Part shown: one piece after another, positions 38,217 to 44,708 of the stretch
How the letters are laid out: each line of letters begins with the position of its first letter
How positions within the stretch are numbered: position 1 is the stretch's first letter
Assembly (NCBI GenBank): GCA_046538945.1
Contig: JBKHHW010000001.1
Coordinates: 17,765 to 81,764 of the forward strand
Length of the DNA: 64,000 nt
Reading direction: 5' to 3'
Source: Chitinispirillaceae bacterium
Lineage (GTDB): Bacteria; Fibrobacterota; Chitinivibrionia; Chitinivibrionales; Chitinispirillaceae
Position numbers and translations under genes: made by a program
The notes under the pieces: model-generated
What the model was told of the DNA's origin: nothing
Databases searched by the model: none
Seen by the model: only the letters and a program-made list of their open reading frames with translations

Positions 38217-39788
38217 ATGGAAGACTTTTTTTCAAACAAAAAGTTTCAATCTCTCCCCCCAAACAGGAAAGCCTCCGTGCAGCAGAGTTCCTCCTACCCC
38301 ATTCCCTGGACAATCCTGATCTGTGCGGACCTGGGATACATTTCTGAGGCACCCGAGGAAATAACCACAGAAAACTGGGATCTGTTCTTAAAGACGCACA
38401 GGATACGAATACAGGAACGGATCGATTCATTTCTTCCTCAAAGTGCAAGTCCATTCACTACAGATTACGAAATTTCTTCACTGAAGGACTTTTCTTCCGA
38501 CCGATGCTGCAAAAAACTACCCGTTTTGGGGCCCATCATCAGAACAAAAGAAGCTCTGATGCGATACATAGAAGGGCTTCAGGATCTAAGCGCAACAGTT
38601 CAAACCATTTCCCAAAACAACCTGCCGCAACCGCTGAAAAACAGGATACTCAAAGCAGTCGAACTTGATACGACCGGTTCAGTAAAGAAACCCACCCGGG
38701 ATCCGGACAGAATCGATACCATACTGGCCCGTATCGATCTGAAGGCACCTACCGTCCAGGAAGGGCCCTACCCTCTTGATAAACTTCTCAAACTGGCACA
38801 CACGGAAGAGAAAACAGGGCCTGAGAGAAAGTTTGTGAGAATACGCTCCATAATCCGTGAGCTGGACATATACTCGGAATCTATGGTGTCCGCCGTACAG
38901 GAGTGCCCCCCCTTCTTCCACAAGAAAAGTACCTGGAAAGCTCTGGAGCTTCTGTGCAGAAGCACAACCAGGAAAAAAACGGTAGAACTTTTCGTACACT
39001 CTCTTCCCCGGAATAGAGCTGAAGAGTCCTTTGAAACAGTTGTCGAACAGCTCTGTCTCCAGAATAAAATACCCGACATAGTCATCTGGGATCATGAAAT
39101 CAGATTCAATGCCACAGGGGAAAAGGTGTTGAAGGGTCTTGCCAGAACTGCGTACAATCATACATTCACGGTTTTTGCATCCCTTAGCGACCAGGAGTTC
39201 ATAAAAAGTCAGAATCACACCATTAGCTGCCGAACCGTTTCTTCAGAAAAATTCAGAAGTTTCAACCGACTGAGAAAAGATGAAATCTTCCGATCACTTG
39301 CCCTGTTCGGTCCGGCGGTATTTTACGAAAGCGAAGATGCATCGAACGATGTCTTCCGTTGCGGGGGGGCATGGCTTATGGCTGAACAATTCATGCATAC
39401 AGTCAGTAGCGGCATTTTTCCCCTGGATCTGAGCAGTTCCATGATAAAAGGTCATTTTCAGCCGATCGCACGTCTGGGTGCCGAAGAGGCCCAGAAAGCA
39501 GCGCGAAACGGAATCACCCTCTTTTCTCTCTCTGATTCGGGAAGTGTGAAAGCGGACGCGATCTGCGCCTTCAAAGCACCCGGATCCAGGCCGATTCTCT
39601 CCATGTTGGATTTCAACCTCCTTCTTAACAGATTCTCCAAACTTGCTGTCACCCGGAGCCACAGCAGAGAATTTTTGATTCTGAAGCATTATTTGGAAAC
39701 TCAGCTGCAACCATTTCATATTTTTGCTCATAGCAGCCCTAAAACGCACGGTTCCGGCTCCGAATCTCAAGATTGGCGAAATAGATGA
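38217..39788 (+). CDS. Hypothetical protein; by-eye resemblance to a fused TssB(VipA)-TssC(VipB) contractile-sheath protein lacking the extreme C-terminal segment
   Basis: 523 aa; GAGG sits 9 nt upstream of the ATG. The N-terminal third has PIPWTILICADLG and EISSLKDFSSDRCCKKLPVLGPIIRTKEALMRYIEGL (TssB-like). The rest has STWKALELLCRSTTRKKTVELFVHSLPRN, HTFTVFASLSDQEF, EKFRSFNRLRKDEIFRSLALFGPAVF, GGAWLMAEQFMHTV, EEAQKAARNGITLFS and LDFNLLLNRFSKL, in the order of TssC conserved blocks as I recall them. That it is coding is likely (0.85); the family call is unverified. Confidence 0.5.
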   Translation: MEDFFSNKKFQSLPPNRKASVQQSSSYPIPWTILICADLGYISEAPEEITTENWDLFLKTHRIRIQERIDSFLPQSASPFTTDYEISSLKDFSSDRCCKKLPVLGPIIRTKEALMRYIEGLQDLSATVQTISQNNLPQPLKNRILKAVELDTTGSVKKPTRDPDRIDTILARIDLKAPTVQEGPYPLDKLLKLAHTEEKTGPERKFVRIRSIIRELDIYSESMVSAVQECPPFFHKKSTWKALELLCRSTTRKKTVELFVHSLPRNRAEESFETVVEQLCLQNKIPDIVIWDHEIRFNATGEKVLKGLARTAYNHTFTVFASLSDQEFIKSQNHTISCRTVSSEKFRSFNRLRKDEIFRSLALFGPAVFYESEDASNDVFRCGGAWLMAEQFMHTVSSGIFPLDLSSSMIKGHFQPIARLGAEEAQKAARNGITLFSLSDSGSVKADAICAFKAPGSRPILSMLDFNLLLNRFSKLAVTRSHSREFLILKHYLETQLQPFHIFAHSSPKTHGSGSESQDWRNR

Positions 39789-39832
39789 AAACAATTTCCG
39801 ATTCACATACACATCAGCTGTAAGGTTTTCTC

Positions 39833-40822
39833 ATGAAAAAATCACACATTTCTCTGTTGGCACTCCTTACGATTCTGATTACCGGCAGTCTTATTGCCCG
39901 TACGTTCAGAAATGACGGACAGTTCGTCACCCATACCGTTGGAAAGGGCGAATCCGTCAGTCTCATCTGTTTGGAACTGTACGGGTATTATTCAGATGAA
40001 CTGGGCGATGCGTTTCACAAGGACAATCCTCACATCGAGGACATCGATCTCATTTCAGTTGGGCAGGAGCTCAAATTCCGCAAACCACGGACAGAAGCTA
40101 AAGTGAAAACCGAGAAAACGATCCAGACAGAACCTCTTTTTGTCAAAAAGGTGAATGCGGTTCAAGGGGTTGTGACCTATGTGGAAGGTGAGGTGTCATT
40201 AAAAAAGAGCAGCGAAAGTGCAGCAATCCCTCTCCCGGTCAATACCATAGTAACCCCGGGAGATAAGATCATTACAGGCAAGGATGGGAAAGCGGAACTA
40301 ATCATCAACCGTGAGTCGGTAATCAGACTTAAAGAAAACACCCGTATGACCGTGGAGAATTTCCGGGGCAAAGGAAATGAAAAGAAAACCCGACTCGACT
40401 GCAGTTCCGGAACAATATGGACCAAAGTTAAAAAAATAAAAGACAAGATATGCCGTTTCGAACTTTCCCTGCCCACCGCCATAGCGGGTGTCCACGGCAC
40501 CGTTTACCAGGTATCAGTCAATCCCGATGAGGACTCTGAAGTAAAGGTTTACACCGGTGAAGTAGCAGTGAGCGGCAAAAAGGAGGGTCAATCACAGACA
40601 GGCGAGCTGAGTGAAGTTTCCGGACCCTCTGAAGTGGCAGGACCAACTGAGGTTTCCATGGAGTCGTGGGTGCATATAGTCCGCTCCATGAGCAAGATTT
40701 CCATCAGCAAGGACGGAGAAGCGGGCAAACCCGTCTCATTCAGCAAAAAACCCGAAGACAAATGGGAAGAATGGAATGAGCAGCGGGACAGCAGAATCGC
40801 ACGTTTGTTCTCGGAGGATTGA
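39833..40822 (+). CDS. Exported LysM + FecR-domain protein
   Basis: 329 aa with a signal/anchor (ISLLALLTILITGSLIA) and a LysM domain (HTVGKGESVSLICLELYG...LISVGQELKF). The FecR-like beta domain reads GVVTYVEGEVSLKK...VTPGDKIITGKDGKAELIINRESVIRLKENTRM...AGVHGTVYQV...VKVYTGEVAV. A short SEVSGP/SEVAGP/TEVS repeat follows. Confidence 0.8.
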   Translation: MKKSHISLLALLTILITGSLIARTFRNDGQFVTHTVGKGESVSLICLELYGYYSDELGDAFHKDNPHIEDIDLISVGQELKFRKPRTEAKVKTEKTIQTEPLFVKKVNAVQGVVTYVEGEVSLKKSSESAAIPLPVNTIVTPGDKIITGKDGKAELIINRESVIRLKENTRMTVENFRGKGNEKKTRLDCSSGTIWTKVKKIKDKICRFELSLPTAIAGVHGTVYQVSVNPDEDSEVKVYTGEVAVSGKKEGQSQTGELSEVSGPSEVAGPTEVSMESWVHIVRSMSKISISKDGEAGKPVSFSKKPEDKWEEWNEQRDSRIARLFSED

Positions 40823-43587: not shown

Positions 43588-43694
43588 TTCAAAACGGTGT
43601 TGCTCTGTCCGAGTCCTCAGAGATTTCATTTACCAACGAAGTCAAAAAAAAGATTCTCCGCAACAGCATAGAATCAGACGACCTGCATGAATTG

Positions 43695-44708
43695 ATGCAC
43701 AACAGGAACAGACTGAAAAAGATAATCGACTCCGGTGATCTTGAAAATACACATATCAACCTGCTTCAAAAAATGCATGAAGCCGGCAGGATATTCAGAA
43801 GAAAAACATTTTTAAACCTTCTCCCGATCGTCATTCTTCTGTTTTCCGCAGTTCTTTTCTTCGGTTATTCATCATTCAGGTACAAAAGGCTGCTTTACCA
43901 AGCGCAGAGCCTTAAAACAGATATCCAAGAAGTGGACAGTCAGATTGCGTCCATACACCATAATCCGTACATAAGTGATAATGAATTGAAAAAACTTGTT
44001 CAGGAACTCCATACAAAACAGGAGAGTTACTCCGACTTAAGGGAAAAGCTTCATGAGAATGATTATGCCAGCTTCTACTCAACCGATCTCGAGCGCAGAA
44101 TTTATGATATTCTCATGCGATTCGGAGAAAACGAGTACGTGATTCCTCAGGAGATGATCCAGAAAGTTGGGCACTATGTGGATGCCTACAATGGCAGATT
44201 AAGAAAAACAATGGAGAGATATCTGAAACAGAAAGAAAACTTCTTTCCTATGATACACAACGTATTCAGGAAAAGAAACATCCCTCCGGAATTAGCATAT
44301 GTATCGATGGCGGAAAGCGGTTTCGATACCGAAGCGCTCAGCCCTGCCGGAGCAAAAGGGCTGTGGCAGTTCATGGAAAAGACCGCGGTCGACTTCGGAC
44401 TCGAAGTAAACACTTTAGTCGACGAGCGGCTCGATCCGGAAAAATCCACGGCCGCGGCGGCGGAGTATTTCAGTGACCTACTTGCAATTTTCGGTAGCAA
44501 GAGTTCGGTGATGCTATCCATGGCGGCCTACAATGCGGGAGAAGGCAGGATAATCGGTGCACTGCGCAAGGTAGAAGACCCGGTGAGGCAGAGGGACTTT
44601 TGGTATCTCTACAGAATGGGCTGGCTGCCGGATGAAACCTGCGAATATATACCGAGAATACTTGCACTTATGATCATTTCGGAATACCCCAAAGAGTACG
44701 GGTTTTGA
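43695..44708 (+). CDS. Membrane-anchored lytic transglycosylase (SLT/MltD-like catalytic domain)
   Basis: It has a TM helix (LLPIVILLFSAVLFFGY) and a coiled-coil-like linker. The catalytic block is YVSMAESGFDTEALSPAGAKGLWQFM...AAYNAGEG. The start is ATG 43695 or TTG 43692. The frame is open for 147 nt further upstream (see findings). Confidence 0.8.
   Translation: MHNRNRLKKIIDSGDLENTHINLLQKMHEAGRIFRRKTFLNLLPIVILLFSAVLFFGYSSFRYKRLLYQAQSLKTDIQEVDSQIASIHHNPYISDNELKKLVQELHTKQESYSDLREKLHENDYASFYSTDLERRIYDILMRFGENEYVIPQEMIQKVGHYVDAYNGRLRKTMERYLKQKENFFPMIHNVFRKRNIPPELAYVSMAESGFDTEALSPAGAKGLWQFMEKTAVDFGLEVNTLVDERLDPEKSTAAAAEYFSDLLAIFGSKSSVMLSMAAYNAGEGRIIGALRKVEDPVRQRDFWYLYRMGWLPDETCEYIPRILALMIISEYPKEYGF

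Follow-up and report, generated by a model that had tools for sequence, protein, structure and literature searches.

A natural TssB–TssC sheath fusion encoded with a CHASE2 kinase, an FHA protein and a lytic transglycosylase in Fibrobacterota

Closest described systems

The sheath of a type VI secretion system (T6SS) is formed by two polypeptides, TssB and TssC (VipA/VipB, IglA/IglB), which the solved structures and papers that we compared show as distinct subunits. Here we analyse a cluster of five open reading frames (ORF1 to ORF5) in a 64-kb stretch of contig JBKHHW010000001.1 from a Chitinispirillaceae bacterium of the phylum Fibrobacterota, which we refer to as the window. The first gene encodes a homologue of both sheath subunits in a single chain, and the other four encode a FecR protein, a CHASE2 serine/threonine kinase, an FHA protein and an SLT-type lytic transglycosylase. 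ORF1 shares with the T6SS sheath the order of TssB followed by TssC, the fold and a helix at the ClpV-binding position, and the wider ORF1 family has N- and C-terminal strands resembling those by which sheath subunits interlock. By contrast, the family consists of one polypeptide rather than two, has about 370 amino acids (aa) of TssC-like sequence compared with about 490 aa in TssC, is very divergent, evolves faster than the baseplate genes and is usually not encoded beside tube or baseplate genes; in the clade to which the window belongs, the C-terminal strands are missing.

The four partner genes recall the threonine phosphorylation pathway (TagE/PpkA, TagH/Fha1, TagR and PppA), in which TagE/PpkA, TagH/Fha and TagR gate T6SS assembly (PMC13584744; see also PMC3953482). 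Like that pathway, the module places genes for a membrane Hanks kinase that has a periplasmic sensor, for a periplasmic partner and for an FHA reader together with a sheath gene. However, the sensor of the module is CHASE2 and not of the VWA type, the partner is a FecR (and possibly LysM-like) protein instead of TagR, the FHA domain lies outside the TagH family and is attached to a lytic transglycosylase, and there is neither a PP2C phosphatase nor TagQST. Peptidoglycan is remodelled for T6SS assembly by MltE in Escherichia coli and by TagX in Acinetobacter (PMC13584744). MltE is likewise an SLT-type lytic transglycosylase, and ORF5 falls in the same class of peptidoglycan-cleaving role, but the enzyme of the module differs from MltE and TagX in being encoded with a sheath gene, in being anchored by a transmembrane (TM) segment and in carrying, or in the window's clade being paired with, a cytoplasmic FHA domain. 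The presence of FHA on or with the transglycosylase implies phospho-dependent control, which is undescribed for MltE or TagX. The analogy with PpkA/Fha1 gating and peptidoglycan remodelling, which an initial annotation of the window had drawn, is a reasonable one.

In Burkholderia, the BiofilmReg operon encodes a secreted LysM/FecR protein directly upstream of a CHASE2 receptor (PMC5192318). Its output is a histidine kinase and a response regulator, whereas that of the module is a Ser/Thr kinase and an FHA reader, and the pair there accompanies a sheath homologue and a transglycosylase. Actinobacterial PknB, together with FhaA and FipA (FhaB), is likewise an envelope-sensing Hanks kinase for which FHA proteins couple phosphorylation to the peptidoglycan machinery. 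It differs from the module in its phylum, in its PASTA sensor (CHASE2/FecR in the module) and in having no sheath homologue, and in the module one polypeptide carries both the FHA domain and the peptidoglycan enzyme. A 2026 review of T6SS accessory factors (PMC13584744) does not contain the exact composition of the module, in agreement with the initial annotation, which knew of no described system of this kind. The module is nevertheless better regarded as a variant than as a new kind of system, and its FecR/CHASE2 pairing was already present in PMC5192318.

The TssB–TssC fusion

ORF1 contains two sheath-like parts joined by a linker with a short helix:

38217..39788, + strand: ORF1, 523 aa, cytoplasmic TssB–TssC homologue with no TM segment (VipA match, family profile, and AlphaFold2 (AF2) model with Foldseek)
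38280..38666, + strand: TssB/VipA-like part, approximately aa 22–150 (profile positions 1–150; Pfam and NCBIfam TssB models match aa 48–134)
38712..38738, + strand: helix IDTILARID, aa 166–174, positional equivalent of the N-terminal ClpV-binding helix of TssC (aligns with the first residues of TssC/VipB chains, LDEIL/LDEIM)
38829..39725, + strand: TssC/VipB-like part, approximately aa 205–503 (profile positions 154–372; Foldseek alignments over 367–440 columns of TssC chains)

Scanned alone, ORF1 matched the Pfam VipA/TssB model PF05591 marginally, with 24.8 bits just reaching the cut-off of 24; it fell about 70 bits short of the cut-off of the NCBIfam TssB model TIGR03358 (26.5 bits compared with 97.25) and gave no match to Pfam VipB. 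It also matched the IglA chain 3j9o_A with an E value of 2e-4. A word-indexed search returned just three other relatives, with 80, 65 and 44% identity. Exhaustive profile searching of 1.84 billion representative proteins (E <= 1e-3) revealed that the family is rare, with 62 proteins, about 35 of which are full length (474–577 aa) and approximately 20% identical to ORF1. We built a profile from an alignment of 39 members. Positions 1–150 of this profile matched TssB 5urw_1A (E 7.6e-8), IglA and VipA, the E values for TssB chains ranging overall from 4e-8 to 2e-3, and positions 154–372 matched TssC 5urw_1B (E 7.8e-13) and seven other TssC chains. When the members were scanned singly, Pfam VipB (PF05943) was found in 25 of the 39 and VipA in 19.

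The predicted structure gave the same assignment. An AF2 model of ORF1 built with the 39-sequence alignment reached a predicted local distance difference test (pLDDT) score of 81 and a predicted TM-score (pTM) of 0.80, curing the low score (pLDDT 45, unusable) that was obtained with four close sequences alone. The first eight Foldseek matches of this model in the PDB were all T6SS TssC chains (E 2.8e-8 to 9e-6, 318–440 aligned columns). The best E value belonged to 5n8n_B and the highest TM-score, 0.58, to 5urw_1B, and the sheaths of phages and of extracellular contractile injection systems ranked next. Because the profile (TssB and then TssC), the Pfam matches of individual members and the fold all agree, we conclude that ORF1 is a genuine sheath homologue and, specifically, a natural fusion of TssB and TssC. 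The initial annotation had called ORF1 sheath-like and had asked for a test of its homology; family profile, Pfam and fold each confirmed a sheath homologue, but the term understated what is a fusion of both subunits. In all full-length family members (474–577 aa), as in ORF1, the two sheath parts lie in one ORF and not in two separate subunits, and we found no description of a natural TssB–TssC fusion in the literature searched.

The NCBI record of ORF1 (MFP4012498, a hypothetical protein from a Chitinispirillaceae metagenome-assembled genome (MAG)) is 503 aa long and starts 20 codons further downstream. The additional 20 N-terminal codons (38217–38276) are conserved in close relatives and match the part of the family alignment that holds the N-terminal strand, and the 523-aa form is thus probably correct. 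We considered the short matches of the exhaustive search (P0038, P0048, P0049, P0052, P0053, P0064, P0044, P0047, P0054 and P0058) as possible stand-alone TssB-like or TssC-like genes and rejected all of them, as their sequences proved to be pieces of fused family members or frameshifted versions of them. A more distant protein of 584 aa, P0061 (L040:7524-9278), has clear Pfam VipA and VipB matches in a single fused gene, which stands alone among methyltransferase, VWA and HAD genes. P0056 and P0063 resemble P0061, and fused sheath genes may exist outside Fibrobacterota.

TssC's N-terminal helix is recognised by ClpV (PMC5048182). In the ORF1 family, the linker helix carries the motif [VIL]DxIL[SA]M[VIM]D, in which the first D is found in 34 of 39 members, I in 34, L in 37 and the final D in 33. 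From this sequence, we infer that ORF1 may bind ClpV through its IDTILARID helix, and the peptide RIDTILARIDLK would be a candidate ligand for the N-domain of ClpV. A C-terminal tail of two strands (about 38 aa) was present in 34 of the 39 members and at every locus checked outside the window's clade. By its position and pattern, this tail probably corresponds to the handshake (interlocking) strands of TssC. The wider family retains the N- and C-terminal strands together with the ClpV-helix motif.

Between the window and its relative L003, the ratio of nonsynonymous to synonymous substitution rates (dN/dS) was 0.15 for ORF1 and 0.10–0.15 across all five genes, at an unsaturated dS of 0.57–0.91. 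These values indicate that all five genes are selectively maintained, and on the same grounds we rejected pseudogene decay of ORF1.

Partner genes and gene order across Fibrobacterota

The remaining four genes and their domains, all on the + strand, are as follows:

39833..40822, + strand: ORF2, 329 aa, periplasmic FecR protein and CHASE2 partner (Pfam FecR, E 1e-13; hydrophobic N-terminus)
ORF2 aa 4–22, + strand: signal or anchor sequence (hydrophobic N-terminus)
39926-40078, + strand: weak LysM-like domain, ORF2 aa 32–82 (NCBIfam LysM, E 0.022)
40262-40564, + strand: FecR domain, ORF2 aa 144–244 (Pfam, E 1e-13)
40819..43167, + strand: ORF3, 782 aa, TM segment, CHASE2, TM bundle, Thr-rich linker and Hanks Ser/Thr kinase (CHASE2 E 1e-36, Pkinase E 2e-44)
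40861-41838, + strand: CHASE2, ORF3 aa 15–340 (Pfam)
42034-42288, + strand: Thr-rich linker, ORF3 aa 406–490 (10 Thr)
42295-43053, + strand: Hanks kinase domain, ORF3 aa 493–745 (Pfam)
43174..43587, + strand: ORF4, 137 aa, cytoplasmic FHA protein (FHA E 7e-19; FHA domain aa 25–90, 43246-43443)
43692..44708, + strand: ORF5, 338 aa, membrane SLT lytic transglycosylase with a short cytoplasmic N-terminus and a periplasmic coiled region (PF01464, E 9e-24)
43809-43865, + strand: single TM segment, ORF5 aa 40–58
44271-44579, + strand: SLT domain, ORF5 aa 194–296 (Pfam)

ORF4 and ORF5 correspond to the N- and C-terminal halves of a single protein in relatives outside the window's clade, in which an FHA domain is followed by a TM segment and a lytic transglycosylase. 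ORF4 is 62% identical to aa 1–102, and ORF5 46% identical to aa 189–526, of a 554-aa FHA–TM–SLT protein at locus L005. FHA and SLT formed a single open frame at 12 of 12 loci outside the clade and occupied different frames at just three loci (the window, L001 and L003). This Rosetta-stone fusion is the strongest single clue to a functional unit. The domain calls of the initial annotation for both proteins are borne out by the Pfam matches, and its treatment of the two as separate genes holds within the window's clade but not at the 12 loci outside it. ORF4 has the residues for binding phosphothreonine (G27-R28, S45-x-x-H48 and N67-G-T), and its best NCBIfam match was mycobacterial FhaB/FipA (E 8e-17, below the cut-off); TagH (TIGR03354) gave 44.6 bits, short of the cut-off of 120.25. 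The catalytic motifs of ORF5 are intact (E208-S, GLWQ at 223 and AYNAG at 279). The enzyme is MltD-like (E 1e-29), but it is not an MltD orthologue, scoring 103 bits against the equivalog cut-off of 508.

The kinase of ORF3 also has all of its motifs intact (G-loop at 497, HRDLKPAN at 619, DFG at 639 and SPE at 666). Its TM segments (8–26, 331–349 and 358–376) give the usual CHASE2 topology, in which the linker is cytoplasmic, and to our knowledge no ligand of CHASE2 is known. The FecR gene was found directly upstream of the CHASE2 kinase gene, overlapping or abutting it, in all loci that have the full module order (group A, below). Of the domains initially assigned to ORF2 and ORF3, FecR, CHASE2 and Pkinase have strong Pfam E values, but LysM is weakly supported: beyond the NCBIfam match to ORF2, Pfam LysM was found in one of six orthologues (E 0.003) and a profile of the orthologues matched the SafA LysM with an E value of 0.85. 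On the Logan contig L003 (80% identical), the FecR gene was called as two ORFs of 150 and 185 aa (L003:11620-12607) that overlap at about 12035–12050, a frameshift that is possibly an assembly error. We also considered an anti-phage defence kinase system (PADLOC models PD-T4-6, MADS and Stk2) and rejected it, as matches were confined to the kinase domain of ORF3 and ORFs 1, 2, 4 and 5 had none.

We mapped gene context by tblastn at 39 loci that carry the ORF1 family. Hits in named genomes were all from Fibrobacterota (six of six, from Fibrobacteria, Fibrobacteraceae, Chitinivibrionales and Chitinispirillaceae). At group A loci, the order is a TssBC-like gene, FecR, CHASE2 kinase, FHA and SLT, in many cases with a radical SAM gene after them; this group comprises 13 complete loci including the window, four that are cut by contig ends and one with a deletion. 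At group B loci (L013 and L037), the TssBC-like gene is followed by FHA–SLT and radical SAM genes, and the kinase pair is absent. The initial annotation had proposed that ORF1 homologues should be syntenic with kinase, FHA and transglycosylase genes in other genomes, and the 13 complete and four contig-truncated loci show that they are. Most group A loci are flanked by gpmI and/or nadE, which means that part of this conservation is plain synteny. The gaps between ORF1 and FecR are tight across group A (15–44 nucleotides (nt), same strand), and the order of the module survives changed flanks, as at L008 (ABC-F upstream) and L005 (toxin–antitoxin genes downstream). On the basis of these gaps, the order kept with different flanks, the TssBC-like gene lying beside FHA–SLT even where the kinase pair is missing, and a domain logic of the partners that is known elsewhere, we consider the genes to be a functional unit; the recurrence of their order is more than chance.

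The radical SAM protein that follows FHA–SLT at 12 loci has about 327 aa, with Radical_SAM and Fer4_12 domains, and is weakly similar to glycyl-radical activases. Its gene lies at L013:5999-6985, where it stands between the module and tssE, at L007:17188-18168, at L008:16890-17873 and at nine other loci, and is missing from the window and its close relatives.

In the window, the cluster occupies 38217–44708 with all five ORFs on the + strand. The spacing from ORF1 to ORF5 is 44 nt, a 4-nt start/stop overlap (ORF2/ORF3), 6 nt and 104 nt. Upstream is the divergent gpmI gene on the - strand, and downstream, after 269 bp, a PCC/DUF296 gene. Two features lie in the flanking spacers:

37981..38216 (236 bp), strand not assigned: divergent intergenic region between gpmI and ORF1, presumed promoter (AT-rich, GC content 0.34)
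44735-44751, + strand: terminator-like hairpin and T-rich run, 27 nt past the ORF5 stop (consensus match only)

The GC content is 0.34 in the upstream spacer, 0.48 in the cluster and 0.49 in the whole window, and the layout, gaps and spacers were as initially annotated. A single sigma-70-like match at 38036–38064 was weak and not above chance. An Rfam scan found no riboswitch or other RNA element in the upstream spacer or in and around the cluster, and there was no + strand terminator-like site inside the cluster, the one at 44735–44751 being the only one in 37800–45100. The remaining ORFs of the window are housekeeping genes (RND efflux, glycolysis, lysine synthesis, ribosomal proteins, uvrA, acetyl-CoA carboxylase and ffh). 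Elsewhere in the window (27597–29933), a KaiC-like ATPase gene upstream of uvrA precedes two short genes lacking annotation and a pair of single-domain response regulators; L001–L003 share this layout, which resembles a small KaiC-type signalling cassette. A MORN-repeat protein (16221–17021) and a DUF5683 protein of 459 aa (20196–21575) are encoded among the housekeeping genes and have no connection to the cluster.

Relation to type VI secretion and alternative explanations

We propose that the five genes form a single module, inherited vertically in Fibrobacterota, that supplies the sheath, the post-translational trigger and the wall-opening part of a T6SS whose other genes are scattered in the genome, a joint reading to which we give an even chance of being correct. 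In such a system, an envelope or peptidoglycan cue would be read by the FecR (and possibly LysM-like) protein and the CHASE2 domain, and the kinase would phosphorylate threonines either in its own Thr-rich juxtamembrane linker or in a T6SS component. The FHA domain would then dock on phosphothreonine and recruit or activate the membrane-anchored transglycosylase, which would open the sacculus at that spot. There, the fused sheath protein could polymerise on a baseplate encoded elsewhere, and ClpV would use the conserved TssC-type N-terminal helix to recycle the sheath. In the window's clade, the loss of the C-terminal strands and the split between FHA and transglycosylase suggest that this version may work differently.

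The most direct link to type VI secretion was found at L013, where the order is gpmI, TssBC-like, FHA–SLT, radical SAM, TssE (gp25), TssF (E 8e-154), TssG (E 2e-72) and ClpV (TIGR03345, 1152 bits, above the cut-off). This order recalls the common tssB-tssC-(hcp)-tssE-tssF-tssG-clpV block. In assembly GCA_050304135.1, the full module lies on contig L014 and tssEFG-clpV on contig L018. TssF homologues are abundant in Chitinispirillaceae and Chitinivibrionales, and Chitinispirillum alkaliphilum has been reported to carry a T6SS (PMC4814513). We found that tssE-tssF-tssG-clpV in Fibrobacterota is a compact, free-standing operon of four genes whose neighbourhood differs in each lineage (L015–L019, L041 and L042), with no sheath, tube or spike gene within 10 kb. 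In five such contexts other than L013, no VipA/VipB gene lay within 10 kb, which leaves room for a sheath gene elsewhere. A 549-aa unannotated gene upstream of tssE (L015/L016) was tried as a member of the ORF1 family and rejected by the profile. The T6SS genes of Fibrobacterota are thus dispersed, and the module readily suggests itself as a candidate for the operon with the sheath and its regulators. ORF domain scans across the 64-kb window found no tube, spike, baseplate, membrane-complex, ClpV or PP2C gene, as the initial annotation had stated, but its picture of a lone sheath gene with no T6SS probably reflects the size of the window and the dispersed layout seen at L013, at L014/L018 and in the frequency of TssF.

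Several observations weigh against this proposal, beginning with that absence of T6SS genes from the window. Direct adjacency to T6SS genes was seen at one of about 25 loci; L041, considered as a second contig joining the module to tssEFG-clpV, was rejected because its radical SAM gene is not orthologous to that of the module. None of the 120 top-ranking TssF relatives has an accession from the NCBI block of the window (MFP40...), which is no help to the proposal, though it is far from decisive. No PP2C phosphatase was found near the module, either in the window ORFs or in the Pfam tables of related loci. The TssBC-like gene stands alone at 10 loci (group C: L011, L024, L026, L028–L032, L034 and L035), with no kinase, FHA or transglycosylase gene within 10 kb. 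The protein of the window and three close relatives, which form a clade of four members, lack the C-terminal tail after aa 503, and scanning of the alternative reading frames uncovered no hidden tail; the C-terminus of Pseudomonas TssC is reported to be required for tubule formation (PMC3597794). ORF1 is also the fastest-evolving gene of the module, with about 25% identity to distant orthologues compared with 45–62% for the other four genes, and it diverges faster than TssF (54–65% identity across the same families), which is unusual for a sheath. Finally, in L002, a sister Chitinispirillaceae MAG (GCA_046539785.1), an internal deletion (L002:14969-15168) joins FHA aa 8–49 to SLT aa 314–338 and leaves the TssBC-like, FecR and kinase genes intact. 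Unless this is an assembly artefact, at least one genome can do without the FHA/transglycosylase part or is in the course of losing it. The full-length TssBC-like genes of group C, one of them from a Chitinivibrionales MAG, are flanked by a thioredoxin/DsbA-like gene, a GH5 cellulase gene and other unrelated genes.

An alternative that is possible, if rather unlikely, and that has real support in the window's clade is a T6SS-independent envelope module, in which the FecR/CHASE2 kinase senses the cell wall in the manner of PknB with FhaA/FipA, FHA controls the transglycosylase, and domestication has turned the sheath homologue into a cytoplasmic scaffold or kinase substrate, with no tube or baseplate. 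The lack of T6SS genes in the window agrees with this explanation, as do the position of most loci by gpmI/nadE among housekeeping genes, the selective maintenance of ORF1 (dN/dS 0.15) in a clade that has lost the C-terminal strands, its much faster evolution than that of TssF, the resemblance of the FHA protein to FhaB/FipA rather than TagH, and the occurrence of fused TssB–TssC genes alone among housekeeping genes (L040 and group C). However, we know of TssB and TssC homologues only as T6SS sheath, and the terminal strands and ClpV-helix motif kept in the wider family would have no obvious use without polymerisation and ClpV. The gene of L013 lies beside tssEFG-clpV, and the module and T6SS genes share one assembly. 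We look on it as doubtful that a contractile-injection sheath, as a single-chain TssB–TssC protein in no need of tube, spike or baseplate, has been domesticated into a phosphorylation-controlled cytoplasmic scaffold or substrate that steers cell-wall remodelling by a membrane lytic transglycosylase when the FecR/CHASE2 kinase reads an envelope signal; if it has, the window's clade, in which the gene stays under purifying selection despite the lost interlocking strands, would be the clearest case.

It is improbable that ORF1 is functionally unrelated to ORFs 2–5, its position reflecting phylum-wide gpmI/nadE synteny and ORFs 2–5 being an ordinary FecR–CHASE2 kinase/FHA/transglycosylase pathway. 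The flanking gpmI and/or nadE genes and the generally conserved local order would fit such an arrangement, as would the ten loci at which the TssBC-like gene lacks the others, the loss of the kinase pair at L013 and L037 while the TssBC-like and FHA–SLT genes stay, and the pairing of FecR with CHASE2 in unrelated bacteria that have no sheath gene beside it (PMC5192318). The 15–44-nt gaps between ORF1 and FecR on the same strand, with no terminator-like site, argue otherwise. So do the persistence of the link at L008 and L005 with differing flanks and the adjacency of TssBC-like and FHA–SLT genes even without the kinase pair, and control of the T6SS by a kinase and an FHA protein is established (PMC13584744). 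Equally improbable is that the cluster in the window's clade is a decaying remnant of a T6SS module (sheath truncated, FHA–transglycosylase broken and mostly deleted in one sister genome): the tail is lost and the FHA and SLT frames are split only in this clade, L002 keeps a mere joined remnant of both and the window lacks the radical SAM neighbour, but all five genes have low dN/dS, the catalytic and ligand-binding motifs are all intact, and the split is kept in three genomes (window, L001 and L003) with both halves full length.

If the module does provide the sheath of a dispersed T6SS, a natural one-piece sheath confined to a single phylum would reveal the extent to which this structure can be simplified. 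The fusion of the reader to a wall-cutting enzyme in most members suggests how an assembly signal may be coupled to the local opening of peptidoglycan, which is an open question for the T6SS, and the threonine phosphorylation pathway of the T6SS would be extended to a CHASE2 receptor and a FecR partner. As the T6SS genes of Fibrobacterota lie in small operons, locus-based detection of the T6SS will under-call these systems. Should the module instead prove to be independent of the T6SS, it would be a rare case of a part of a contractile machine that has been re-used for another purpose.

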